A stretch of DNA of 63,171 nt, the filler included. It is 7 parts of 7 records of this genome, joined end to end, with 100 filler letters (N's around TTAATTAATTAA, not from the genome) between each part and the next. Parts side by side here need not be neighbours in the genome. Positions count along the whole stretch, not along the records: positions 25,994 to 33,323 come from SRR31156797_58430; 6 more parts are not named here. One strand, written 5' to 3'. The stretch's first letter is position 1; every line of letters begins with the position of its first letter. The notes beneath the pieces were generated by a model, which made no database searches, had not been told where the DNA came from, and saw only the letters and a list, made by a program, of their open reading frames with translations. Below are positions 3,136 to 33,323 of this stretch, piece after piece. The translations under genes and the position numbers were made by a program.

Positions 3136-4689
3136 ATGTACAAGAAGTTTCGCAGTGTATTGCTGACAAGTGTTTGTCTTTTGGCCATGACTGGGCTGAG
3201 TTTTGCCGCATCCACCCCCAGATATGTCTTTTATTTTATTGGTGACGGCCTTGGGCCCTCCCAGAGACAGGCTGCCGAGTATTATTACAAAATGGAGACG
3301 GGCGACAAATCCGCCAAACTGACCATGGACTCGTTTCCGGTTGCAGCCCTTGTGACCACCCATTCCAACAACACCCTGATTACCGATTCGGCGGCCGGCG
3401 GTACGGCCCTGGCCTCGGGCATCAAAACCATCAACGGCATGCTTGGAAAACTGCCGGACGGCACCAATGTCCCCACCCTTACCGAAGCTGCCATGGAGAA
3501 GGGCTACGCAACCGGTATTGTCACCACGACACGCCTGACCCATGCAACTCCCGCGGCCTTTACCGCCCATAACGTCAGCCGTAACAATGCAAATGACATT
3601 GCCGTGGACCAGCTCAACAGCAATGTGGACTTCTTTGCCGGCGGCGGGTACCGTCACTTTGTTGCAAAAAACAACCCCGAAGGCCTGAAATCAAAAAGAA
3701 AGGATGACAGGGACCTTGTAAAAGAGTTCATGGAAAAAGGGTACACCACCTTTATCGGCGATGATGCCCGTGACGCTTTCCGGACCTACGCCCCCCAAAA
3801 GGGCGATAAGGTGATGGCGGCCCTTGCATACAGCCACATCCCCTATGAAGTTGCGAGAAGAAACAGCGACCTTGAGAAAAACAAAATCCCCTCCCTTGCA
3901 GAGATGACCGAGAAAGCGGTAACCATGCTCGACAAGCAGGAGAATCCTTTCTTTCTCATGGTTGAAGGCGGACGAATTGACCATGCCTGCCATGCCCACG
4001 ACGCCAAAAGCGCCATTATGGATACCATTGCCTTTGACGAAGCTGTCCGTGTGGCTTACGAGTTCTACAAGAAACATCCCGAAGAGACCCTGATCGTGAC
4101 CGCTGCCGACCATGAAACCGGCGGTATCGGCCTTGGTATCTCCATGGACAAGTACGGGTATTTCCTGAAGCTCAAAGAACTCGATGACGTTGTCGTTTCC
4201 GCGGAAGATAACCTGAATAAAAAATATAACAAGATGGTGAAAAAGATTGCCGACGTCAATAAACGGCACGAGGCTTTCATCGCCTATGTTGAAGCCAAAT
4301 GGGGCCTGACGGAGAGAACGGCCGCCGAAGATAAAGAGCTCCGGGAATCCATGGTGATCCAGGACAAAAACCAGGGCCTTGCCAAAGAGGAGAAAACCCT
4401 CTACGGATATTCCTACACGCCGACCATGGTTGCGGTAACCAACATTATCTCCCAGAGAGCACGAATTTCCTGGACCTCCTTTGTTCATACCGGAACGGTT
4501 ATTCCTGCCTCTGCCATCGGTTTCAAATCTGAACTCTTCGGAGGGTTCATCGATAATACGGATATCCCGAAAACCATCGCCAGGATCATGAATGCCAATC
4601 TTGCCGGTACAGGTGTAACCGCCTCCGAAGCGCTGCTCGGAGATACCGTCGGACCTCAGAAAAAAGCGTCGCTTATTCCCTACAAATAG
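3136..4689 (+). CDS. Alkaline phosphatase (PhoA family), secreted
   Basis: Motifs FIGDGLG, TDSAAGGTA (catalytic Ser), THATPAAF, EGGRIDHACH, TAADHETGG. Signal peptide ending AAS. ATG 3136 follows GGAG. Confidence 0.93.
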   Translation: MYKKFRSVLLTSVCLLAMTGLSFAASTPRYVFYFIGDGLGPSQRQAAEYYYKMETGDKSAKLTMDSFPVAALVTTHSNNTLITDSAAGGTALASGIKTINGMLGKLPDGTNVPTLTEAAMEKGYATGIVTTTRLTHATPAAFTAHNVSRNNANDIAVDQLNSNVDFFAGGGYRHFVAKNNPEGLKSKRKDDRDLVKEFMEKGYTTFIGDDARDAFRTYAPQKGDKVMAALAYSHIPYEVARRNSDLEKNKIPSLAEMTEKAVTMLDKQENPFFLMVEGGRIDHACHAHDAKSAIMDTIAFDEAVRVAYEFYKKHPEETLIVTAADHETGGIGLGISMDKYGYFLKLKELDDVVVSAEDNLNKKYNKMVKKIADVNKRHEAFIAYVEAKWGLTERTAAEDKELRESMVIQDKNQGLAKEEKTLYGYSYTPTMVAVTNIISQRARISWTSFVHTGTVIPASAIGFKSELFGGFIDNTDIPKTIARIMNANLAGTGVTASEALLGDTVGPQKKASLIPYK

Positions 4690-4720
4690 CAGCAACGCTT
4701 AAGTGACAGCATCACATGAC

Positions 4721-4761
4721 AAATGGGCAGGATGGCAGAAGACTTATCCTGCCCATTTTTT
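4721..4761 (+). terminator. Strong hairpin with T tract between the phosphatase and YibE/F genes
   Basis: AAATGGGCAGGAT ... ATCCTGCCCATTTTTT, a 13-bp perfect stem. Confidence 0.65.
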
Positions 4762-4775
4762 CGTTTGAGGTAGAA

Positions 4776-5939
4776 ATGAAAAAGACTCTCGCAAGTTTAA
4801 TCGTCATTGCCCTGATCGGGGTTGTTTTCGCTTTTATTTTCCGGGCGAACCTGACAGGCGGTGACAACAAGGGCGTGGCTGAGTTACGCGGTGTTGTCAC
4901 GGGAATCAGTAATGAGGGCATCACGGATATGGGGCTTGTCCGGATAGGATTCCAGAAAGTCAGTGTCATGCTGCTTGAAGGCCCCTTCAAGGGGCGTGTG
5001 GTCCAGGCTGAAAACCAGCTCCTCGGCCAGCCTGATATCGATGAAACCTATACGGTGGGAGACGAACTCCTTGTGGGCGTCGATATGGGGGACGGCTCCC
5101 CCGGCGCGGCAAGAACCCTGAACAACTATCGCCAGCGATGGGAGCTGATTCTTTTCGGGGTCTTTGTGGTCATGCTCCTGCTCTATGCGCGCCTGACCGG
5201 GCTGAAGGCCCTCTTTTCCTTTATTGCGGCGTTTTATATCCTGTGGCAGTTTTTTATCCCTTCCCTGCTGGCAAAAGCCGACCCCATTCCCGTCACCATC
5301 CTCACCCTGACCCTGCTCACGGTGGTCATTATCTACTCGGTTGCCGGCATCAGCAGAATTGCCCTGGCCGCCACGGTCAGCACCCTGACGGGCCTTGCCA
5401 TCACCCTGGCCCTGACCCTCTTTTTCGGTGAGAAGATGAAACTTGCCGGTATGACGGCTCCCTTTGCCTCGGCACTGATATTTTCCGGGAATATCGGGTT
5501 GGATATCCGGGATATCTTTTATGCCTCCGTCATTATCGGAGCATCCGGGGCCGCCATGGATATTGCAATGGATGTGACCGCTTCCATTGCCGAAGTAAAA
5601 AAGAAAAAACCGGACATCACACCCCCTGAACTCATCCAGTCGGGCCTCAATGTCGGCAGAATGGTTACCGGAACAATGACCACCACGCTTCTTTTGGCCT
5701 ATTCCGGCGGATACCTTACCATGCTGATGTATTTTGTCTCAAAAAACGCCTCGTTTTCACGTATGCTGAATTACAAGCTTGTGGGCGCGGAGCTCTTCCG
5801 GACCCTTGTGGGAAGCATCGGCCTTGTGATGGTTGCCCCCATTGCCGCTGTTATCGCGGCCTGGGTCTTCTGTATCGACTCCGATAAAATCCATATCCGG
5901 ACCTTTATGGGGCGCTTGAGAAAAGGAAAGAACCTCTAA
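4776..5939 (+). CDS. YibE/F family membrane protein
   Basis: N-terminal TM segment, soluble beta domain, then multiple TM helices. Motifs GASGAAMDIAMD and GTMTTTLLLAYSG. GAGG RBS before ATG 4776. Confidence 0.85.
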   Translation: MKKTLASLIVIALIGVVFAFIFRANLTGGDNKGVAELRGVVTGISNEGITDMGLVRIGFQKVSVMLLEGPFKGRVVQAENQLLGQPDIDETYTVGDELLVGVDMGDGSPGAARTLNNYRQRWELILFGVFVVMLLLYARLTGLKALFSFIAAFYILWQFFIPSLLAKADPIPVTILTLTLLTVVIIYSVAGISRIALAATVSTLTGLAITLALTLFFGEKMKLAGMTAPFASALIFSGNIGLDIRDIFYASVIIGASGAAMDIAMDVTASIAEVKKKKPDITPPELIQSGLNVGRMVTGTMTTTLLLAYSGGYLTMLMYFVSKNASFSRMLNYKLVGAELFRTLVGSIGLVMVAPIAAVIAAWVFCIDSDKIHIRTFMGRLRKGKNL

Positions 5940-7077: not shown

Positions 7078-8007
7078 TCAGTTTGCGACGATGCGCACCT
7101 GGAAGCTGATCAGCTCAAAGACCAGATGCATGCCAAGGTATTCAAAATGGCGGGCAGACCCGTAAATGATGCCCCATTTGGTACGGTCGATGTCGAAATG
7201 GGCTTCAGCCATCAGGTCGTTTTCAGGTGTCTTTGTGATGGTCGCCACAAAATCCTGCCGGGCTTTAACCCCCCTCAGTGTTAAGGTCCCGTTTATTTTG
7301 TAGTTTGGGAGACTCAAATAAGGGTCTGTGACAGGGAGCCCGCTATTGATCTCGAAGGTGGCTTTGGGGAAGAGCCTGGTCAGGAAAAAATCATCGGATT
7401 TGAGGTGGGCGACCAGGACCGGCTGCAGGTCGTCACCTTCAAGGTTTATGTTCGTGATGGATTCCATGTCGATGTCAAACTGGCCGGTGATGGTGCCATC
7501 CCTGACCTCGAGTTCTCCATTGGCGATTCCAACGGTGCCAAAGTGGGTCGTGGTTGGATTCCTTCCCCTCCATTCGATAGTGCTCCGGGCCGTATCAACG
7601 CGATATGACCGGTCCTCAAGTGTCAATAAGGTTTGAGGATCGGATGGTTCGTCAACCGCTTCTCCCTCCAGGGGGAAACCGGCGGAACACCAGCTCTCGA
7701 TACCGCCCTTTAACACATAAATATATCTGTAACCTTTCTTCTCAAGCTTCTCGGCTGCCGTGACCGCATCCAGGGACCTGTCGCTTGCTCCGTAAAGCAC
7801 GATTTCATAATTGTTGTCTTCGGTTATGGCCTTGACCTGGTCAATGAAGGTCACTTCGAAAACACATGCGTTGCTTGCGTTGGGCAAATGTCTTCCGGTG
7901 AAATTCTCAGCTTTCAAGGTGTCAATGAGGTAAAAGGTCTTTTCCTCTTCAATCCAGCGATGCAGTTCTTCCGGGGGCAGTTCTTGGTACGTCATTGAAT
8001 TTGTCAT
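7078..8007 (-). CDS. Rhodanese-like domain fused to YceI domain
   Basis: N half has HLPNA and YVLKGGIESW (rhodanese). C half has VDTARSTIEW, HLKSDDFF, GTLTLRGV and IDRTKWGI (YceI). AAGGAG RBS before ATG 8007. Confidence 0.85.
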   Translation of the reverse strand: MTNSMTYQELPPEELHRWIEEEKTFYLIDTLKAENFTGRHLPNASNACVFEVTFIDQVKAITEDNNYEIVLYGASDRSLDAVTAAEKLEKKGYRYIYVLKGGIESWCSAGFPLEGEAVDEPSDPQTLLTLEDRSYRVDTARSTIEWRGRNPTTTHFGTVGIANGELEVRDGTITGQFDIDMESITNINLEGDDLQPVLVAHLKSDDFFLTRLFPKATFEINSGLPVTDPYLSLPNYKINGTLTLRGVKARQDFVATITKTPENDLMAEAHFDIDRTKWGIIYGSARHFEYLGMHLVFELISFQVRIVAN

Positions 8008-8440
8008 TTTTGTCTCCTTTTTCAATACCTCATTTCCTGGTCGCAGGGAAATTCACAGTTTGCAATTCGATGAATTTTCGTTAGCAAATTGAAAAAAACA
8101 TAGCGTTTTTAAGGAAAAAGAACTGAAATTTTCTGCCGAGCTACATATCTGACAAATTTAAGTGTCAAGAAAATATTCATGGGGTTAAGCCGGATGTCTG
8201 TTTGAGCAAATGTGCGTTTTCCTTTGAATAATCCGTTTTCGAACTGGATCGACGGGGGTCAGGGAACCGGATAACTGTAAATGGAACAGTGGCAACTTAA
8301 TTTCATTGAATGGAGGGTATATTACACCTCTTTTTCAGCTAAAGTCAACGGTAGAATCATCCTGAGGCAAATTCGTTGCCACCGTCCGTTGAAGGGATCT
8401 TATCGCCGGGGAATTGGCCGTCCCTTGTTCCTGCCGCCGT

Positions 8441-8839
8441 TTAACGATACCTGGGGCGGGTTCGGGACTTTTCATGGAATGCTTCAATACCCGTTTCCCT
8501 GATCTTTTCGTTGATCATGACCCAGCCGTTATACAGGGTCGGATCAAAATTGGTTCTGTCACAGGGAAACGCCCCACACTGGTAGCAAAAATCAACCTGT
8601 TTTTCCTGGTGACAGGGGCGCACCCCGCATTCTTTAAACAGTTTGCACGGCTCGTTTCGGCAGCCCTTGCAATTTTCCGAAGCAAAGTAATCGAGCATCT
8701 CCTTGAAATCAGGATATTTCTTAAAAATGGGGTGTCCCAGCAGGGTTTCAAAACGCTTGGCATAGGTGTGGAAATTCCCCAGTTTTTCCTTGAGTTTCAA
8801 GCTGTACCGGCGGATATCTCCATCCACATGGGCAAAGCA
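8441..8839 (-). CDS. Cys-rich DUF3795-like protein (5' truncated)
   Basis: Cys pattern CKGCR...C...C...C...DFCYQCGAFPC. Frame is open up to the linker. Confidence 0.65.
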   Translation of the reverse strand, partial: CFAHVDGDIRRYSLKLKEKLGNFHTYAKRFETLLGHPIFKKYPDFKEMLDYFASENCKGCRNEPCKLFKECGVRPCHQEKQVDFCYQCGAFPCDRTNFDPTLYNGWVMINEKIRETGIEAFHEKSRTRPRYR

Positions 8840-8939
8840 NNNNNNNNNNNNNNNNNNNNNNNNNNNNNNNNNNNNNNNNNNNNTTAATTAATTAANNNNN
8901 NNNNNNNNNNNNNNNNNNNNNNNNNNNNNNNNNNNNNNN
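8840..8939. other. Artificial contig linker
   Basis: N44-TTAATTAATTAA-N44, which puts stops in all frames. Genes are cut on both sides. Confidence 0.98.
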
Positions 8940-9593
8940 CATCAACTCGTCGCGCTGTTCGGCACGCTCTTTTTCGATGAGTTTACGGCGACTGACCAGG
9001 ACATTGTTATCACGACGATCCGCCTCGATCACGACACAACGGATTGCCTGGTTCAGGAACATCGAAATATCGGTTTCGCGAACGACGTCCACCTGTGAAG
9101 CCGGCATGAATCCCCGAATCCCGTTCAGGTCAACCTCAAGTCCACCTTTGTTCATTCCCGTAACGCGTGCTTCTATAATCGTACCTGGTTTCATATTGTC
9201 CCAGGATGCGATCTTCGCGGCGCCTTCGCGGGAATAGACCTGCAGGTTGGATCCCTTGTCGAAGCGATCATAGACTACTTCAACAATGCTCCCGACTTCC
9301 AGTTTGTCCTCTTCCGAGAACTGGGATTTCGGAACAACACCTTCGGCCTTGCCTCCGACGTCGATGAAGACGTCATCGCCATGGATCTGAAGAACCTTTG
9401 CGTGGATGACCTGATCTTCCGAGGTTGGAGCACCAGACGGAACGTCCAGAAGGGACATGTCCGCTATAGCCGCTTCTTCCTCCTTCGTCAGACCGGAACT
9501 CTCAGGCATTGGCTCGGGTGTAGGAATTTCGTTTGGGGTTTGAGACGATTCGACGGGATCTGGCGAACCCGCGGGGTTGGGGGTGTCTGTCAT
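8940..9593 (-). CDS. rpsA: Ribosomal protein S1 or S1-domain protein (3' truncated)
   Basis: S1 repeats VFIDVGGKAEGVVP, NKGGLEVDLNGIRGFMPASQVD and NVLVSRR. Confidence 0.8.
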
Positions 9594-9965
9594 AATCCAA
9601 ATAGTCCGCGACGGGCGGACACTCCGTAAGTAAGAACTTCCAGTGCATTATCAAACGATTCTACCCCTCGGGGCAGGAATCCCAATCAGACCTGTTCGTA
9701 AATTCTGGATTTGTATAATTTCCATAAGATAGACAGGACTGCTAATCGCTTTTCAGGATCGAGCTTCGATCACCAGCTTTAAAACGCATCTACGTGCCCT
9801 GAAGATACCTGAACTGCCCCAACGATTTCAAGTAGATGCGAAACGCAAAGGGCAGAATATCAGTGTTACCAATTTGGCATCGCAATGTCAACCACTTAAG
9901 AAAACTTAATTGTTCAGGCATACACAATTGGACGTCCGGTACGTTTCCGGTCACAATAGACTATC

Positions 9966-25893: not shown

Positions 25894-25993
25894 NNNNNNN
25901 NNNNNNNNNNNNNNNNNNNNNNNNNNNNNNNNNNNNNTTAATTAATTAANNNNNNNNNNNNNNNNNNNNNNNNNNNNNNNNNNNNNNNNNNNN
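25894..25993. other. Artificial contig linker
   Basis: N44-TTAATTAATTAA-N44. Confidence 0.98.
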
Positions 25994-26941
25994 GCAACTG
26001 ACGCCCATTCCGATGGGGCAGGAAGCCCCGTGGCGGGGCATTCGGATAACCCGAACATCCAGACAGAAATATTTGCCGCCGAACTGAGCGCCGATGCCGG
26101 TCTCCCGGCTCGTTTTCAGAATCTCGTCTTCCAATTCAATGTCCCTGAAAGCGCGGCCGCCCGGCGATCCGGTGGTCGGCAGGTTATCCAGATAACCGGT
26201 ACTGGCCAATTTTACGGTTTTCAGGTTCAACTCCGCCGACGTCCCGCCGATGGCAAAAGCCAGATGATAGGGCGGGCAGGCTGCCGTACCCAAGGTTTTC
26301 ATTTTTTCCAACAGGAATTTTTTGAGCCTGTCCGGATTTAAAACAGCCTTGGTTTCCTGGTAGAGATAGACTTTGTTGGCGCTTCCGCCGCCCTTGGCCA
26401 CAAACAGGAATTTGTAGGCATCGCCCCATGTGGCATACAAATCGATCTGGGCCGGAAGGTTGCAGCCGGTGTTTTTTTCCTCAAACATGCTCAAAGGAGC
26501 GTTCTGGGAATACCGCAGATTGTTTTGGACATAGGCGTTGAACACCCCTTTGCTAATTGCCTCCCTTTCATTGAAATCAGCCCACACCTGCTGGCCTTTT
26601 TTGCCCATGATAAGGGCCGTTCCGGTATCCTGGCACATGGGAAATTCCATCTCCGCCGAAATGACGGCGTTTTTGAGCATCTCCAGGGCAACCAGCCGGT
26701 CATTCTTGGAGGCTTCCGGGTCGTCTAAAATGGCGGCCAGCTTTTCAAGGTGCACCGGCCGCAGCAAATGGGCGACATCCCGGAACGCGGTTTCCGTCAG
26801 AAGCGTCAGGGCCCGGGGTTCAATTTTGAGAATCTCCTTCCCTTCAAAAGAGGTTGTGGAAACATGATCTTGACTTAGAAGACGATACCGGGTGGTATCC
26901 TCTCCCAGGGGAAACATCTCCTGATAACTGAAATCAACCAT
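25994..26941 (-). CDS. fumA: Fumarate hydratase class I (3' truncated)
   Basis: Motifs [60 protein letters not shown] before ATG 26941. Confidence 0.93.
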
Positions 26942-27042
26942 TTTGTTCTCCTTCCAAATTCCCGTATTCTCATATTTTTTTAGCAAAAGGCGTTCATGAA
27001 GATATGTTTTTTGTCTGACGTCTGCGCCATAAAAAAAATGGA

Positions 27043-27071
27043 TTGACATGGCATCCGCAGTTGTTTATTTA
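27043..27071 (+). promoter_or_regulatory. Sigma70-type promoter for the leader/CoA-transferase transcript
   Basis: TTGACA (27043-27048), 17-nt spacer, TATTTA (27066-27071). Confidence 0.65.
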
Positions 27072-27100
27072 AACGGAAAACAAACGGGAGTGCAACAGGA

Positions 27101-27178
27101 ATGAAATTTTTTGGGCAGATATCTTTTTTTGGCTTTTTCTTTTGCTTTAGCCAGAGGTCTGCCCGGCTCCGCCAGTAA
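27101..27178 (+). CDS. Phe-rich attenuator leader peptide MKFFGQISFFGFFFCFSQRSARLRQ
   Basis: 8 Phe in the first 16 codons. GGGAG/AGGA upstream. Overlaps the alternative hairpins. Too short for the ORF track. Confidence 0.8.
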   Translation: MKFFGQISFFGFFFCFSQRSARLRQ

Positions 27179-27237
27179 CAACAAAACGGAGACCATGGGC
27201 AGGCCTCATTAGCCACCCATGGTTGAAAATGACTTTG

Positions 27238-27270
27238 AAGGCCATGGGATTTACCCCATGGCCTTTTTTT
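27238..27270 (+). terminator. Attenuator terminator upstream of the CoA-transferase gene
   Basis: AAGGCCATGGG-ATTTAC-CCCATGGCC followed by T7. Lies about 95 nt before the start codon on the same strand. Confidence 0.88.
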
Positions 27271-27363
27271 GTGGTTAAAAAGGCCCAGCACGGGTTTTGA
27301 ACAACAGGTTGATAGAACGGGGAGCTTCGACGAAAACCATGGGTTAAAAGGAGGTAAAGAGAG

Positions 27364-28572
27364 ATGGGCGGACCTTTGGAAGGGGTTAAAGTAGTTGAAA
27401 TTACGATGTTTCAACAGGGACCGGTGGCGGGGATGCGACTGGGGGATCTGGGTGCGGATGTGATCAAGATAGAAGCGAAAACCGGTGACCCGGCGAGGGG
27501 ATTCATGAAAATCATCGGCGCCATGGCCGGCCTCAAGGGGCATAACTACTATTTTGAACATACCAACCGGAATAAAAGAAGCCTGGTTCTGGATCTCAAG
27601 ACCGAAAAAGGGATGGCGGTATTTCTGGACCTGATCGATGGCGCCGATGTCTTTCTTAACAATATGAGCATCGGCGCACCCATCAAAATGGGGATCGGCC
27701 CGGATGATCTGATGAAAAGAAATCCCCGGCTGATCTATGCCCAGGCATCCGGGTGGGGCCGGAGGGGGGCGGACGCCAAGACCCTCTCCTTTGATTACAC
27801 CGGCATTGCCCGATCGGGACTGATGATGTCCTGTGGCGAAAAAGGATCGCCGCCGACGCAGATTCTGCCGGGCATGGGAGATGAAATCGGTGGACTCATC
27901 TGCGCCTGGGGTATCACCGCGGCCCTTTACGCACGGGAAAAGACCGGCAGGGGGCAGGTGGTGGATACTTCCCTCATGGGGAGTATGATCGGCGCTTTGG
28001 GGTTTATCATGGCCGCACCCGCCATGCTGGGGCAGGAATTCCCCAGGGAGGTGAGGGCCCGGGCCGGCAATCCTCTCTACAATCATTACCGGTGCAAAGA
28101 TGACCGGTGGGTCGCCATTGCCCATCTGGATCCGGACAGATACTGGCCGAAATTGTGCCGGGCTCTGGGGCTTGAGGATCTGGAACAGGATGAAAGGTTC
28201 GGCAGCATTGAAGCCCGCGGGGAAAACGCTGAACCCCTGGTGGCGATTTTCGATGAGAAATTCGCCGCGAAAACAAGAGATGAGTGGTTTGAGATCCTGG
28301 GCGAAGAAGGATGCATTTTCACGCCGATTCAGACCCCCACAGAGGTTACCAACGACCCCCAGGCACTTGCCAACCACTACTTTATTCCCGTGGAGCATCC
28401 CGACTGGGGCGCCACCAAAATGACCGGATTCCCATGGGATTTCAGCGAAACACCGGCATCATGGCGGCGAAAGGCACCGGGATTTGGAGAACACAGTGAA
28501 GAAATCCTAAAAGAGCTGGGTTACACTAAAGAAAAGATAGCATCCCTTAAAGGAGATGGTATTGTTTCATGA
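27364..28572 (+). CDS. Family III CoA-transferase (CaiB/BaiF)
   Basis: Motifs PLEGVKVVE, LGDLGADVIKIE, NRNKRSLVLDLK, NPRLIYA, TGRGQVVDTSL, PGFGEHSEEIL. AGGAGG RBS. Confidence 0.93.
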   Translation: MGGPLEGVKVVEITMFQQGPVAGMRLGDLGADVIKIEAKTGDPARGFMKIIGAMAGLKGHNYYFEHTNRNKRSLVLDLKTEKGMAVFLDLIDGADVFLNNMSIGAPIKMGIGPDDLMKRNPRLIYAQASGWGRRGADAKTLSFDYTGIARSGLMMSCGEKGSPPTQILPGMGDEIGGLICAWGITAALYAREKTGRGQVVDTSLMGSMIGALGFIMAAPAMLGQEFPREVRARAGNPLYNHYRCKDDRWVAIAHLDPDRYWPKLCRALGLEDLEQDERFGSIEARGENAEPLVAIFDEKFAAKTRDEWFEILGEEGCIFTPIQTPTEVTNDPQALANHYFIPVEHPDWGATKMTGFPWDFSETPASWRRKAPGFGEHSEEILKELGYTKEKIASLKGDGIVS

Positions 28573-28679
28573 AGTGCCGCTATGGAAAATGCAAACATGT
28601 TTCTTTCTTTTGTGGTCTCCGGATCGCCCATCAAGGGCACCCATGGGTATTTGGATCAATAACGGACGGGGTATCTTTT

Positions 28680-30419
28680 CTATGGTTGACGCTGCCCGGT
28701 AATGATCCGCTTCTGTGCCTCTTTCCCCTTCAGATTCTTTTCAACAAAAAGCTTTTGCCCCGTAAAAGGATCCCGGCCGGTATAATACATAAGGGTTGAA
28801 TATGTGGCGGGTGTGGGCGTAAAAATCTGCACCTGCTCGGGCAAGAGGTGTAACGTTTTCGTGGCGAACTTTCGAAGGGCCTGCATGTGGCCCATGGTGC
28901 ATCCGGGATGAGCGGCCATGAAATAGTAGGTCAGAAACATTCTGCTACCGATTTTTCGTTTCAACCCGTTGAAGAGACCTACAAATTTCTCAAGGCCATA
29001 TCCCCCCGGTTTTCCCATGAGATTCAAAACCGCATCGGAAACATGCTCCGGTGCAATTTTAAGCTGCCCTGACACATGATGCCGCAAAATCTCTTCCAGA
29101 TAGTTTCTGCCCATCTTACGGTCATGGAGAATCAAATCGTACCGGATACCCGACCCCACGAAAACCTTTCGAACGCCGTCCAATTGAGACAGGGCTTTTA
29201 AGAGATGCATCTGTGGACCGTGATGGACCGGCAGATGCTTGCACGGTTCGGGGAAAAGGCATCCCTTGTCTTTGCAGGCCCCTTGTTTCTGTTTCAATTT
29301 GCACTCAATGCCGTACATATTGGCCGTTGCCCCGCCCACATTGGAAATAATCCCCTTAAAACGGGGATGCTTCAAAAATCCGCGCGCTTCACGCAGAAGG
29401 GACGCCTCGCTGCGGGACGAAACATGCCGCCCCTGGTGAACCGTAATGGCGCAGAACCGGCATTCCCCATAACACCCCCGGTGGGTGGTCAGGGAAAACC
29501 GAATGGTATCCAGGGCCGGAACCTTCCCCTTTTTCCCGTAAAAGGGGTGGATATCCCTGGCGTAGGGGAGTTCGTAAACCCGGTCGAGGGCATTTGGAGG
29601 AAGGGGTAAAGCGGGGGGATTCTGCACCAGGTAGCGTGTATCCTGTTTCTGATAAAGCCGTCTGCCGGTCATGGGATCCGCATTTTCATAGAAAGCCTTG
29701 AACATGCGGGTGAATCGATTCCGGTCTTTCGACACTTCATTGTGTGGGGGAAGCAGCAGATCCGGAGACGGGAATTGAGAATCGGGTACCGGAACATCCC
29801 GGCTGATGTAGCAGATGCCGCGAATTCCCGTTATGGGCAAACCCTCACGACGTTTTTGAGCCAGCGCCACCACGCTGCTCTCACCCATGCCGTACACCAG
29901 CACATCGGCTTTGGCGTCAAACAGGATAGACCGTCTCACCGAGTTCGACCAGGCATCATAATGGGATATGCGCCTCAGACTGGCCTCAATCCCACCTAAG
30001 ACAATAAAGGCATGGTTCTTGAAATACCGACGAATGAGGTTGCTGTAGATAATAACGGCCCGGTCGGGACGTTGGGAGTTTACACCCCCCGGCGTCAGGT
30101 CGTCCCGTTTGCGACGTTTCCCCGAAGCCGTGTAATTGGCAACAAGGGAATCCACGGCTCCGGCGGTCACTCCCCAGAACAGTTTCGGAGAACCCAATCT
30201 TGAGATATCCCCACCACCCTGCACATCCGGCTGGGCGATGATACCGACCCGGAAGCCTTCATCCATGAGTACCCGACCCATAACCGCCACACCCATGTGA
30301 GGAGAATCCACGTAAGCATCCCCGGTCACCAGAATCACGTCCGGAGCGTCCCAACCGAGATCCGAAATCTCTTTTCGGGTTGTGGGAATAAAGGGCGGGG
30401 TTTGGGAAATGGAGATCAA
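28680..30419 (-). CDS. ygiQ: YgiQ family radical SAM protein
   Basis: Motifs VTGDAYVDSP, GGIEASLRR, CYGECRFC (CxxxCxxC), SGIRYDL, LKIAPEH, YFMAAHPG, EQVQIFTPTP. Confidence 0.92.
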   Translation of the reverse strand: MISISQTPPFIPTTRKEISDLGWDAPDVILVTGDAYVDSPHMGVAVMGRVLMDEGFRVGIIAQPDVQGGGDISRLGSPKLFWGVTAGAVDSLVANYTASGKRRKRDDLTPGGVNSQRPDRAVIIYSNLIRRYFKNHAFIVLGGIEASLRRISHYDAWSNSVRRSILFDAKADVLVYGMGESSVVALAQKRREGLPITGIRGICYISRDVPVPDSQFPSPDLLLPPHNEVSKDRNRFTRMFKAFYENADPMTGRRLYQKQDTRYLVQNPPALPLPPNALDRVYELPYARDIHPFYGKKGKVPALDTIRFSLTTHRGCYGECRFCAITVHQGRHVSSRSEASLLREARGFLKHPRFKGIISNVGGATANMYGIECKLKQKQGACKDKGCLFPEPCKHLPVHHGPQMHLLKALSQLDGVRKVFVGSGIRYDLILHDRKMGRNYLEEILRHHVSGQLKIAPEHVSDAVLNLMGKPGGYGLEKFVGLFNGLKRKIGSRMFLTYYFMAAHPGCTMGHMQALRKFATKTLHLLPEQVQIFTPTPATYSTLMYYTGRDPFTGQKLFVEKNLKGKEAQKRIITGQRQP

Positions 30420-32797
30420 AGCGTTTTAACACCCTGCCTGACGGATTCCGCGGCCACAAAAGGTCGCTTCCTGGCCGCACCCATATTGACCGTTACCCGC
30501 AAAGCACGCAGCCCGTGCACCCCCTGAAGATCCTGCAATTCAAGTTTTTCGATTTCCTTCTCCAGGTAGTTTTCTTCCTGCAGATAATCAATATACTTCA
30601 GGTATTCGCGCATTTCCCGTCCATGTGAATAGACAATGGCGATTTTTCCGGGCTGGGTTAAGCGTTCACTGCTCCCCTTGATCATGGCCTTGTCGATGCG
30701 TTTCTTGATGATTTCATGACGAATGTCATAGGCCCCGTCCACATCGAAGCGTCTCTCGTCGGGACGGAAGCGGATGGATAAGGGGGTATCCTGGACCAAG
30801 ATCAAATGGGCGGCTTCGAGGGGCATTTTGGAAGTGGTCTTCAGGTCTTCCGTCCGCCATGCCACCCCGCACATGACCATTAGCTGCCACAACCGCAGAT
30901 TTTTGAGATAAAGCATATCAAACTTCAGATCCTCCACCATGGAGGCACCCATGTAGATGGTATAATCCACGCCATCGGTTTTCATTTTTTCAAAATAATG
31001 GGGGAAAAAAGACTGGGCGGTCTCTTCCTCCTCATCCAGGTATGCGCTGATGACTTCATTGATCCGAAAGATGCTTTCCTCGAAATCCTTCCGCTTTCGA
31101 TAAAGGGCGCCAAGGGACGGCTCCAGCGCGGCGCGATAGGTCTCAATCGGTTCGCGAAGGGTCGGATCGGCATCCATGAGATGGTCCAATACCGGTTCGA
31201 TTTCTTTGCGAAGAAAATCCGCCTTGGCCACCTCGTCCCCTGAATTGAGGTTATCTTTGACCTCCTCAATATTCCCTTGTATCCGGTAGTTTAAGGCATC
31301 CAGAATGGGGAGGGGTTTCTTCTCCCGGGCCAGCAAAATGATCTCCTGAACCATTGTGAACTGTTCCACCAGGTCCGATTGAAGGGCCGTATTGCGATAA
31401 TCGCTGGAATCCCTGATGTCGGAAACCCCATAGAGGGGGTAAACATTGGGGAACAGTATGGGTTCCAGTTCCGTCACCGTTTCCCGGTCCTGCCCCATGT
31501 AATTGAGCGCCGCCCGGTGAAAACGCCATTCCACCGAAGGATGGATGGCCGTGCATTTCTCCTTGATAATGGCCTGAACCCGGTGGTTGAGTTCCTCCAT
31601 ACCCCGGTTGATGGCCATGGAAAAAAGCGGTATGATTTCCTGAAGCTTCATGGTATCCAGCATGCTGAAAGCGTCCGGGTGCGGTGATTTGACGGAAAAA
31701 GTTCCCAGGAGCCGCTCCTGGTAGTACAGGGGCGCCACAAAAAGACTTCTCACACCCTTTTCGATCATGTGCTGTTCCAACGGGGTTTTGTTTGGATACT
31801 TTTGAAGATCCCGAATAATCTGTTGTTGGCCTTTCTCCACCACTTCCACAAAAAGCGAACCCCCGAAATCTTCTTTCATACGATGTTCCGAATCGGAGAA
31901 GATACAGCCCCTCTCACAGCCATCATCCATTTTATGATCGGGATTTAGAATCAACACTTCCTCACCCTGAAAAGCGGCCAGATCCATGATCAAATCCGGT
32001 TGCCCCAAATAAATGCGAAGTTTTTCATGGAGTTTTAAAAACCCTTCCGATGAAAAAATGGATTCCTTTTCAATGAGGTCCCGTTTAAGGGATGACAATA
32101 CTTCCTGGTCCGTCACATCCACGGCCCGGCAGACACCGAACCCCTGGAAAAGAAACCGATCCGGAGGTAAAATTTCCATCCAGTGAACGGGATCGTCACC
32201 CGCGGATAGAATCCATTCCCGATCCGCATCGGATAAAGGCTTCAGTTTCCCGGTCTTTCGAATTTCCACAAAGCGCGGATCAAAAGAGATGTTCAAAAAC
32301 CGATCCAGCTGGGTTTCAGGGTCCTTCAAGGTTACAATTAAGGGAAAATCATGGGGAAACCGCATATGGTAAAAGGTTTCAAGAATCAGGGAACAGCCCT
32401 TCACAATCCGTCCCATGGCCCAGTGCTCGGCATCCAGATTTGCCAGATTTCCAAAATCCATGCAGTTCTCCGAAGGCCACAGCCGCTTGAAAGTGGGGCT
32501 CACATAAACGGTCTCATTTTGGAAAGGGACGAATGCCGCCGCATAATCCCGGTCACTGAAAGCAGGGGGAAATACAAGGCTCATGAGCATATCAATGAGG
32601 CTTCTGTTTTTTTCCAGCACCCGCGAATCTGTAATGGGCTCAAACATTTCCGGCGCATGGTTCAACTCTTTTTCCACCGCTTTCATGATGGCACCCTCCA
32701 CGCCGTCATCCTTTGACAGAAGTTGCCGCCAGAAATCGATCAGGCCGGAAAAACAGAGAACGCTCTTGAATGGAAAATCACTCACCTTGTCAGACAT
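30416..32797 (-). CDS. Large GAF-domain protein of unknown function
   Basis: GAF-like segment GVRSLFVAPLYYQERLLGTFSV. Conserved-looking blocks TAIHPSVEWRF, YPLYGVSDIRDSS, KTDGVDY, FDVDGAY, KKRIDKA, ERLTQPGKIAIVY. Confidence 0.8.
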   Translation of the reverse strand: MSDKVSDFPFKSVLCFSGLIDFWRQLLSKDDGVEGAIMKAVEKELNHAPEMFEPITDSRVLEKNRSLIDMLMSLVFPPAFSDRDYAAAFVPFQNETVYVSPTFKRLWPSENCMDFGNLANLDAEHWAMGRIVKGCSLILETFYHMRFPHDFPLIVTLKDPETQLDRFLNISFDPRFVEIRKTGKLKPLSDADREWILSAGDDPVHWMEILPPDRFLFQGFGVCRAVDVTDQEVLSSLKRDLIEKESIFSSEGFLKLHEKLRIYLGQPDLIMDLAAFQGEEVLILNPDHKMDDGCERGCIFSDSEHRMKEDFGGSLFVEVVEKGQQQIIRDLQKYPNKTPLEQHMIEKGVRSLFVAPLYYQERLLGTFSVKSPHPDAFSMLDTMKLQEIIPLFSMAINRGMEELNHRVQAIIKEKCTAIHPSVEWRFHRAALNYMGQDRETVTELEPILFPNVYPLYGVSDIRDSSDYRNTALQSDLVEQFTMVQEIILLAREKKPLPILDALNYRIQGNIEEVKDNLNSGDEVAKADFLRKEIEPVLDHLMDADPTLREPIETYRAALEPSLGALYRKRKDFEESIFRINEVISAYLDEEEETAQSFFPHYFEKMKTDGVDYTIYMGASMVEDLKFDMLYLKNLRLWQLMVMCGVAWRTEDLKTTSKMPLEAAHLILVQDTPLSIRFRPDERRFDVDGAYDIRHEIIKKRIDKAMIKGSSERLTQPGKIAIVYSHGREMREYLKYIDYLQEENYLEKEIEKLELQDLQGVHGLRALRVTVNMGAARKRPFVAAESVRQGVKTL

Positions 32798-32978
32798 ATT
32801 GTTTTCCTTTCTTCAGCCAAAAATCCGGAAAAAAGTTTAAAGTAGAAGATATCCACCCACGGCTTTAAGGTCAAGGAAGTTTGGAAGCCGGGGATCCGGT
32901 TTCAACGCTTGTAAATACATTGAAAATGCTTACAATACCGGCTTGTTTAAATTACTTCACTGGAGCCCGAAAAAAACC

Positions 32979-33323
32979 ATGTCGCAAACATTAAAAAATG
33001 AGAATCTTAGAAACGTTGCCATCATCGCCCACGTGGACCACGGAAAAACCACCCTTGTTGACGGCCTGTTTCGCCAGAGCGGCCTCTTCCGAAGCAACCA
33101 GAAGGTGGAAGAACGGCTCATGGACACCATGGAACTGGAAAGGGAGCGTGGCATCACCATCGCCGCCAAAAACTGTTCGGTTAAATGGAAGGGGGTCAGG
33201 ATCAATATCATCGATACACCCGGACACGCGGATTTCGGCGGAGAAGTGGAACGGGCCCTCAGCATGGCCGACGGCGCCATCCTTCTGGTGGATGCCTCCG
33301 AAGGCCCCCTGCCCCAGACCCGG
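32979..33323 (+). CDS. typA: Translational GTPase TypA/BipA (3' truncated)
   Basis: Motifs [48 protein letters not shown]. Confidence 0.95.

Follow-up and report, generated by a model that had tools for sequence, protein, structure and literature searches.

Upstream of a gene for a family III coenzyme A (CoA) transferase, in a stretch of DNA of 63,171 nucleotides (nt) joined from seven parts, lies an element that we read, with a probability of roughly 0.87, as a ribosome-mediated transcription attenuator that senses the charging of phenylalanine (Phe) tRNA through a six-segment hairpin relay like that of the his operon. The whole stretch is called the window here, and its positions 25,994-33,323 come from SRR31156797_58430. 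The element occupies part of a 422-nt intergenic region (26942-27363) flanked by divergent genes, and the CoA-transferase gene is the one that it would regulate. The mechanism is a classical one, of the pheL and hisL type; the RNA family, the host group and the target genes appear undescribed in Rfam 15 and in the literature searched.

Three lines of evidence carry this reading. A short open reading frame (ORF) rich in Phe codons is kept in frame across related leaders, two mutually exclusive sets of hairpins are conserved in the same RNA, and, in related genomes, the codon run of each leader matches the pathway of the gene that follows it.

Leader anatomy and the proposed switch

The element begins with a promoter-like sequence and a Shine-Dalgarno (SD)-like motif, continues with a leader ORF of 25 codons in which Phe occupies codons 3, 4, 9, 10, 12, 13, 14 and 16, and ends in a G+C-rich intrinsic terminator of 12 pairs followed by a run of seven T residues (Table 1). 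A first-pass annotation, made from the letters of the window, had proposed a TTGACA-17-TATTTA promoter, a 25-codon ORF with eight Phe in its first 16 codons, and six pairing segments ending in a terminator with its T7 run. Promoter, segments, terminator and T-run were all found where they had been placed, the promoter even though a promoter scan did not call it, and these features and the ORF were both read directly and re-derived by script. The terminator was also found independently by a consensus terminator scan, and an inverted-repeat search independently listed the same inverted repeats as the proposed segments. The leader folds at -75 kcal/mol, compared with -55.0 +/- 4.35 kcal/mol for shuffled sequences (z -4.59), and none of 200 shuffles folded as well.

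Table 1. Features of the intergenic region and its flanking genes, in window coordinates
Feature	Position	Strand	Sequence, partner or remark
Class I fumarate-hydratase alpha-type gene	25946-26941	minus	
-35 hexamer of leader promoter	27043-27048	plus	TTGACA, read from sequence
-10-like hexamer	27066-27071	plus	TATTTA, read from sequence; 17-nt spacer after -35
SD-like motif	27086-27090	plus	GGGAG, 10 nt 5' of leader ATG
Leader ORF	27101-27178	plus	25 codons and TAA; MKFFGQISFFGFFFCFSQRSARLRQ
Leader Phe codons	27107-27112, 27125-27130, 27134-27142, 27146-27148	plus	
Segment 1	27113-27119	plus	GGGCAGA; pairs with TCTGCCC (27158-27164) in segment 2
Segment 2	27154-27164	plus	GAGGTCTGCCC; inside 3' end of leader ORF; partner segment 1 or 3
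Inner helix	27167-27171 / 27187-27191	plus	CTCCG/CGGAG; leader stop codon in loop
Leader stop	27176-27178	plus	TAA
Segment 3, whole	27192-27207	plus	3' part pairs with segment 2, 5' part with segment 4
Segment 3, 5' part	27192-27199	plus	ACCATGGG; pairs with CCCATGGT
Segment 3, arm	27197-27207	plus	GGGCAGGCCTC; pairs with segment 2 (11 bp, one G-U)
Segment 4	27216-27223	plus	CCCATGGT; partner segment 3 or 5
Pairing 4:5	27216-27222 / 27242-27248	plus	CCCATGG/CCATGGG
Intrinsic terminator	27237-27270		12 pairs
Segment 5	27238-27248	plus	AAGGCCATGGG; terminator 5' arm
Segment 6	27255-27265	plus	CCCATGGCCTT; terminator 3' arm
T7 run after terminator	27264-27270	plus	
CoA-transferase SD	27348-27354	plus	AAGGAGG
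Family III CoA-transferase gene	27364-28572	plus	402 aa; regulated gene

In the proposed mechanism, transcription would start a few bases 3' of TATTTA and the leader would be translated while RNA polymerase proceeds. When charged Phe-tRNA is plentiful, the ribosome would reach the TAA codon and cover segment 2 together with the inner helix; segment 3 would then pair with segment 4, leaving segment 5 free, and hairpin 5:6 with its U7 tract would end the transcript at about 27270. Should the leader not be translated, hairpins 1:2, 3:4 and 5:6 would form and the outcome would again be termination. When Phe-tRNA is scarce, the ribosome would be expected to stall on the Phe codons, the early ones being the most useful since a ribosome there would mask segment 1. 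Segment 2, left free, would form the long 2:3 hairpin with the inner helix and thereby release segment 4, which would capture the CCATGGG of segment 5 on its emergence. The terminator would come too late, and transcription would read through into the CoA-transferase gene.

Conservation of the reading frame and of two alternative folds

Related loci were fetched by means of the CoA-transferase protein. A relative is encoded by 287 of the 320 candidate stretches obtained, and the analysis used the best 80; these are mostly metagenome-assembled genomes labelled Desulfatiglandales, Desulfobacteraceae, Desulfomonilaceae or Syntrophorhabdaceae, with Dehalococcoidia and Acidobacteriota further out. 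At E<1e-3 the intergenic DNA of the window has matches in 14 of the 80 loci, all of them on the strand of the gene and upstream of it, and the same RNA is present in 17, where a covariance model scores strongly on its 16 training rows and on the truncated L058. The leader stands either directly 5' of the CoA-transferase gene or about 1.7 kb upstream of it, before a gene for a 527-aa protein whose sole recognisable part is a GNAT domain. At the GNAT-type loci only about 10-30 nt separate the T-run from the start of the gene, so that a second promoter would hardly fit.

The signals that would start transcription and translation of the leader recur in the relatives. Of the 26 leaders examined, 25 have TTGAC[AT] 36-75 nt 5' of the leader ATG (the exception is L022, whose sole upstream TTGAC abuts the leader ATG), TATnnA follows in close relatives at the identical 17-nt spacing to the -35 hexamer, and AGGAG or GGAG precedes the ATG by about 10 nt in L003, L004 and L001. 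At four distant relatives (L010, L011, L012 and L020) the -10-like box ends about 7-10 nt 5' of the leader ATG and an SD is absent; leader ORFs of this kind may be translated from leaderless mRNA.

With its own promoter-like site and strong terminator, the unit of about 190 nt could also be viewed as an independent small gene, with a stable small RNA or a Phe-rich peptide of 25 residues as its trans-acting product, while the CoA-transferase gene is transcribed separately. Terminated attenuator RNAs and leader peptides of Sinorhizobium can act in trans, according to portions of two reports (PMC6614838, PMC7298713), and in the window 93 nt lie between the end of the terminator and the CoA-transferase start. 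We nevertheless consider a separate small gene very unlikely. The promoter scan of the intergenic region yielded no other site, and none between the terminator and the CoA-transferase gene; the short distance from T-run to gene in the GNAT-type relatives, the constant placement of the element upstream of the same genes on the same strand, and peptide conservation limited to the Phe run and to the stretches involved in RNA pairing all argue against it. A role in trans for the terminated leader RNA could be added to attenuation.

Conservation of the leader ORF follows its codons. All 16 complete leaders retain a start codon and the frame and have their stop between segments 2 and 3, and the frame, the Phe codons and the position of the stop are conserved across 22 related leaders, with insertions and deletions in multiples of three. 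The peptides share the pattern ..FFxFxFFxF[RK]x[RK]SAxL, within which the number of Phe residues, their spacing and the residues between them vary freely and only the codon class is kept. Across 25 leaders, TTY codons occur 155 times in the reading frame and 68 and 67 times in the two others; in composition-preserving shuffles the number is 44.7 +/- 5.3, and none of 2000 reaches 155. The share of C within the Phe blocks is 0.07 at codon position 1, 0.07 at position 2 and 0.33 at position 3, and this concentration at the third position fits TTT/TTC wobble and not a U-rich RNA motif. Orthologous leaders that keep T-richness and lose the reading frame, the outcome named in the first-pass annotation as contrary to its proposal, are not among the 16 complete leaders.

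A search criterion for Phe-rich mini-ORFs matched 24 of the 80 upstream regions, compared with 13 matches in the remaining 1.09 Mb of locus sequence on both strands, and missed L019 and L021, which have four Phe codons each. The Phe-rich ORF of L055 was rejected as a leader: it has no T-run and is probably a chance occurrence.

Ten of the 80 loci (L031, L042, L043, L019, L022, L016, L025, L027, L021 and L056) carry a different set of hairpins before the same genes. Nine of them were recognised from weak covariance-model matches at the expected place and L056 from the ORF criterion. Leaders of this second architecture have a TTGACA promoter and an SD; their ORFs, of 21-22 codons, are Phe-rich (MVCTRDTFFFFFSFRRSTCVT and MVVISNRDFFFGFFFRRKSRAC are examples), and they have a single antiterminator and a terminator with the sequence GCGGAGTTCACACTCCGC followed by T8. 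The two leader types have the Phe run in common and neither the RNA nor the remainder of the peptide. No other single argument for the Phe codons as the sensor is as strong as this sharing.

Both folds were counted on an alignment of 16 sequences and on one of 22, which contains six extra rows from the metagenome scan described below. RNAalifold on the 16 sequences returns the terminated state, composed of 1:2, the inner CTCCG/CGGAG helix, 3:4 and 5:6. This state is 92.1% paired with nine pairs changed on both sides in the 16 sequences, and 92.9% paired with 13 such pairs in the 22. The read-through state (2:3, inner helix and 4:5) is 94.0% paired with seven pairs changed on both sides in the smaller alignment and 93.8% paired with eight in the larger. 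In all four counts the observed pairing was reached by none of 500 shuffles, and sliding the partner by one to three columns as a control lowered the pairing to 25-54%.

Compensatory changes are present in helices 1:2, 2:3, 3:4 and 5:6. Helix 1:2 is 87-89% paired and shows G-C replaced by A-U in 5 of 22 sequences; in these five, the C to U change in segment 2 is accompanied by G to A in segment 1, and segment 3 retains its G, forming a wobble pair. For helix 2:3 the pairing is 94-95%; the outer pairs of this helix, which lie outside 1:2, covary (CG 8, GC 5, AU 1, UA 1). Four of the five pairs of the inner helix have changed on both sides, for example from C-G to U-A in 9-10 of the 22 sequences, helix 3:4 (89-93% paired) has A-U replaced by G-C in 6 of 22, and the terminator helix 5:6 is 99% paired in the 22 sequences. 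Mean hairpin energies are -18.5 kcal/mol for 1:2, -26.9 for 2:3, -20.5 for 3:4, -14.8 for 4:5 and -20.6 for 5:6; helix 4:5 forms in all 16 homologues, with energies from -9.8 to -19.8 kcal/mol. Comparison of orthologous upstream regions, which had been suggested together with the Phe-sensing proposal, thus yields conserved in-frame Phe codons and stems that covary, except for the near-invariant 4:5. The conserved frame and Phe codons, the second Phe-rich leader type and the two folds all support the proposal.

Leader codons and downstream genes

Metagenome contigs were scanned with a pattern drawn from hairpins 3-5 only, which leaves the leader ORFs unconstrained. The scan gave at least 120 stretches, from which 80 loci were examined, and at least 18 of these are true loci, as recognised by the covariance model. 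The codon classes of the 18 leaders correspond to the genes downstream. Phe-rich leaders precede a gene of the family of the 527-aa GNAT protein (GNAT-527) in L100, L084, L113, L157 and, weakly, L132; they precede a CoA-transferase gene in L159, and in L084 after its GNAT gene, and in L081 genes for a PaaK-like AMP ligase, an ACT-pair protein and a periplasmic binding protein. Tyrosine (Tyr)-rich leaders (FYYWNYYF) stand before DAHP synthase (L086, L134). Mixed aromatic leaders stand before genes for DAHP synthase, dehydroquinate synthase, chorismate mutase/prephenate dehydratase and dehydroquinase in L115, and before a DeoC-type aldolase with dehydroquinate synthase II in L108. Phe/Tyr leaders precede a class I/II aminotransferase (L148, L126), and a tryptophan (Trp) leader, NNWRWWRKY, precedes a TrpB-like PALP enzyme (L151). 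A mixed leader is followed by a GNAT-527 relative in L128, and a YYYY leader by a protein without a Pfam family in L153. In L116 the Trp leader NWWWWA (4088-4285) is followed not by a trp enzyme but by the gene for a secreted Phenol_MetA_deg outer-membrane protein (4375-5292), which may be an uptake channel for an aromatic compound.

Several of these loci show variations in gene content. In L113 an ADP-forming acyl-CoA synthetase (CoA_binding, Succ_CoA_lig, ATP-grasp_5; 7679-9760, minus strand) follows GNAT-527 in place of the CoA-transferase, and in L025 and L027, from the set fetched by protein, two tandem CoA-transferase paralogues follow the leader. The aminotransferase gene after the Phe leader of L082 (3309-3772, minus strand) is split in two frames, owing either to a frameshift or to an error in sequencing. 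Apart from L142, which looks like a truncated copy of the module, the other 62 of the 80 metagenome loci proved unrelated, being a GGGAATGGGA-type repeat, coding regions and simple repeats.

The same correspondence holds within single genomes. Four genomes with CoA-transferase leaders (L004, L013, L025 and L002) were searched with the covariance model. Leaders reading ..RNWWWRS.. and ..NNWWWCW.. precede anthranilate synthase I (trpE) in G001 and G003, a leader MYLVWVWQ.. precedes a class I Trp/Tyr tRNA synthetase in G002, and a leucine-run leader, MLFSLLLLLLLLSLW.. (LLLLLLLL), precedes an HMGL-like/HCS_D2, isopropylmalate-synthase-like gene (L204, G003:C24). Tyr-rich or aromatic leaders were found before genes for DAHP synthase (G001), shikimate kinase (G004), an aminotransferase (G002) and a metallo-beta-lactamase-fold protein (G001). 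Because leader codons track the pathway within single genomes, the Phe-only leader before the CoA-transferase is read as Phe-specific control, and the occurrence of Trp, Tyr and leucine leaders before matching pathways in the same genomes lends further support to the attenuation originally proposed.

Some of these leaders have features of their own. L204 ends in a terminator of the form GGCCATGGGG/CCCCATGGCC, so that with its leucine run this terminator type is not confined to aromatic amino acids. L207 (G001:C2:161179-161320) has the mixed aromatic leader FTGFFYFRFWG before a 494-aa metallo-beta-lactamase-fold protein. In L209 (G002:C17:35811-36011), before DAHP synthase, LVLFLLLFLL is encoded by the one ORF that has a start codon and YFYFYFYF by the +1 frame, which lacks one; this may reflect an assembly indel or a different leader. 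L215 (25 bits) was rejected as a leader and is instead the end of a coding region with a terminator.

The swapping of codon runs also speaks against a second alternative, in which the Phe-rich nascent chain is a peptide or general translation-stress sensor that stalls the ribosome in response to a small molecule or to slowed translation. The RNA relay would turn any stall in the ORF into read-through, and an inducer-type signal would suit a catabolic CoA-transferase; sections of PMC8429421 and PMC2965389 supply precedents in TnaC, which stalls with tryptophan, and in the ermC leader, which responds to the slowing of translation. Against this, the number and spacing of the Phe residues and the residues between them vary, with only the codon class kept, and the leaders change to Trp, Tyr or leucine runs exactly where the downstream pathway changes, which is the signature of sensing by codon and tRNA. 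We judge a peptide sensor slightly less likely even than a separate small gene.

Rfam 15 gave no family at gathering score in the window. Between 26900 and 27420 it gave eight chance-level matches at E<=10, the best with E 1.7; the Phe-leader family of enterobacterial pheL is not among the eight, and the T-box model matched neither in the window at gathering score nor in this interval at E<=10. Least likely of all is a ligand-, protein- or tRNA-binding RNA switch (a riboswitch, a T-box-like element or protein-mediated antitermination) with an incidental ORF: it would account for a conserved, structured 5' leader with a terminator as expression platform, and the CCATGG palindromes could in principle be protein sites, but these Rfam results, two mutually exclusive pairings that account for the conserved nucleotides, the codon-phased conservation of the ORF, and second-architecture leaders that keep the Phe ORF with a different RNA all speak against it. 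Even in combination, the three alternatives are unlikely.

Objections, precedents and the regulated genes

A number of findings weigh against attenuation by tRNA-Phe charging. At the front of the element, TATTTA matches TATAAT at three of six positions and lacks the final T, which is why the promoter scan did not call the leader site, and the best SD of the leader sits 10 nt from the ATG. Within the RNA, helix 4:5 is 98% paired without covariation and four of its seven pairs never vary, so that covariation neither supports nor contradicts it; moreover, six of the 22 rows were fetched by a pattern that fixes parts of segments 3-5, and the conservation there is partly the result of this selection. 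A ribosome stalled at the last Phe codons (masks on Phe14 and Phe16) would cover part of segment 2. Ribosome-masked equilibrium folds all contain the terminator at full length and do not separate the states, and with the window transcript at length 27250 the mask for a ribosome at the stop yields 4:5 instead of 3:4. As for the regulated gene, the CoA-transferase is not known to have a role linked to phenylalanine, its nearest characterised relatives act on dicarboxylates and formate/oxalate, and if the enzyme were catabolic, induction by Phe starvation would run the wrong way round.

Because the terminator comes back in every full-length equilibrium fold, the choice between the states has to be made kinetically, as in classical systems. 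With segment 3 of the window locked into 2:3, no fold beats helix 4:5 until the free 3' end has grown to about 27258, and refolding directly from 4:5 to 5:6 must cross a barrier of about 9 kcal/mol; in this modelling these values are compatible with escape through the U-run, without amounting to proof. The case for a relay through 4:5 is indirect: the helix forms in all 16 homologues, hairpins 3:4 and 5:6 use the same CCATGG palindrome, which two independent hairpins would not need, and a constitutive strong terminator before the gene must somehow be disabled. Nine loci (L086, L134, L115, L082, L148, L116, L081, L153 and L151) have a T-run of their own after hairpin 3:4. With such a T-run the module becomes two tandem terminators that share the CCATGG stem and are linked by 4:5, and a single 2:3 event can open both only through that link.

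The first-pass annotation had proposed that stalling on Phe codons yields 2:3 and 4:5. Of these, helix 2:3 is conserved and covaries, and the proposed 4:5 step draws on conserved complementarity and on kinetics. In the masked folding that it had suggested, masks on the early Phe codons cover segment 1 and leave segment 2 free, and the equilibrium folds fail to distinguish the two states.

The hisL attenuator of Salmonella and Escherichia coli is a six-segment relay in which A:B, C:D and E:F (the terminator) alternate with B:C and D:E, and the successive pairs relay the ribosome's position at the first of them to the terminator. A six-segment relay is therefore not new in itself. The arrangement here, 1:2, 3:4 and 5:6 against 2:3 and 4:5, is alike in design only, with no sequence kinship. 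It differs from hisL in the amino acid, in its unrelated sequence, in relay arms that are copies of one palindrome (CCATGG), and in the T-run that many relatives carry on 3:4, by which the relay couples two tandem terminators. At pheL-pheA and pheM-pheST, the stop codon lies near or in the switching helices, hairpins compete, and transcription reads through when tRNA-Phe is poorly charged. The element in the window resembles these systems in its short ORF with a Phe run, in a stop at the switching helices and in its competing antiterminator and terminator hairpins. In contrast with them, it shows no sequence or covariance-model similarity, belongs to a Thermodesulfobacteriota-like host and not to the Gammaproteobacteria, precedes a CoA-transferase gene (with or without the GNAT-domain protein) in place of pheA or pheST, and has six segments where they have four. 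PMC3082878 presents pheL as short, with runs of Phe codons, and as controlling pheA by attenuation.

Attenuators of the trpL type (E. coli; Sinorhizobium trpL/rnTrpL) share the mechanism class, and the module itself precedes trpE with WWW leaders; the RNA is different, however, and the leader of the window contains no Trp codon. A precedent for non-classical targets outside the classical groups comes from the comparative analysis of His leader peptides before hisS and hisZ in Bacillus, as given in part of PMC2965389; phylum, amino acid and RNA all differ from those described here. In the open literature searched, including PMC2965389, PMC545781 and PMC3766115, with subscription papers and supplements outside this scope, no such leaders are described in delta-proteobacterial or Desulfobacterota lineages, and no leader-peptide attenuator is described before CoA-transferase genes.

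The CoA-transferase belongs to Pfam PF02515 (E 5e-114), and no NCBIfam equivalog reaches its cutoff with this protein. Its nearest solved relatives are succinate-hydroxymethylglutarate and formyl-CoA transferases, and its homologues bear generic or transferred names only. The GNAT-domain protein gave only weak GNAT matches against the PDB sequences (best E 0.008), and in the protein atlas it matched nothing beyond generic GNAT clusters and the 'hypothetical protein' cluster to which it belongs. In the window the CoA-transferase gene stands alone, because the next gene converges toward it, and the genes further downstream are not conserved between loci. The partners and stand-ins found under Phe leaders, namely the GNAT-domain protein, the ADP-forming acyl-CoA synthetase (L113), the second CoA-transferase (L025, L027) and the PaaK-like ligase (L081), all make or use acyl-CoA thioesters. 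According to PMC7356843, phenylacetate and phenylpyruvate can serve rumen organisms as precursors of Phe. Given these partners and this route of synthesis, starvation-induced activation of aryl acids is a reasonable hypothesis, and we loosely infer that the CoA-transferase and the accompanying GNAT-domain protein contribute to the supply of Phe, perhaps through activation of phenylacetate or another aryl acid.

A broader reading joins three proposals, and the combination is doubtful: a large, undescribed modular attenuator system of Thermodesulfobacteriota-like anaerobes, a Phe-specific acid-activating regulon, and an aryl-acid route to Phe. The module would then consist of one CCATGG relay, often with two coupled terminators, and interchangeable Phe, Tyr, Trp, leucine or mixed aromatic ORFs. 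The regulon would comprise the CoA-transferase, the 527-aa GNAT protein, the ADP-forming acyl-CoA synthetase, and the PaaK-like ligase with its ACT and binding proteins, and the route would make Phe from aryl acids by CoA activation and then reductive carboxylation, bypassing the shikimate pathway.

The leaders themselves form a well-supported family of leader-peptide attenuators in a phylum-level group for which neither Rfam 15 nor the literature searched holds any. A hairpin module reused with different codon runs offers a ready means of reading off the amino-acid regulons of sulfate reducers and syntrophs that are uncultured. It also attaches a signal, low charging of tRNA-Phe, to an abundant CoA-transferase and a GNAT-domain protein that bear generic names only, so that their biochemistry becomes testable with aryl-acid substrates.

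Two further observations concern the DNA around the regulated gene. A seventh copy of CCATGG, AACCATGGGT, lies at 27335-27348, directly 5' of the CoA-transferase SD. In the inverted-repeat search it showed full complementarity to 27215-27224 (10 nt) and 92% complementarity to 27250-27261, and in read-through transcripts it could pair with the freed segment 6 or with segment 4; no copy of this type was seen in L003 or L004. On the minus strand, an open frame of 472 codons (26980-28398) runs antisense to the leader and most of the CoA-transferase gene, and is taken to be the shadow of the real gene on the opposite strand.

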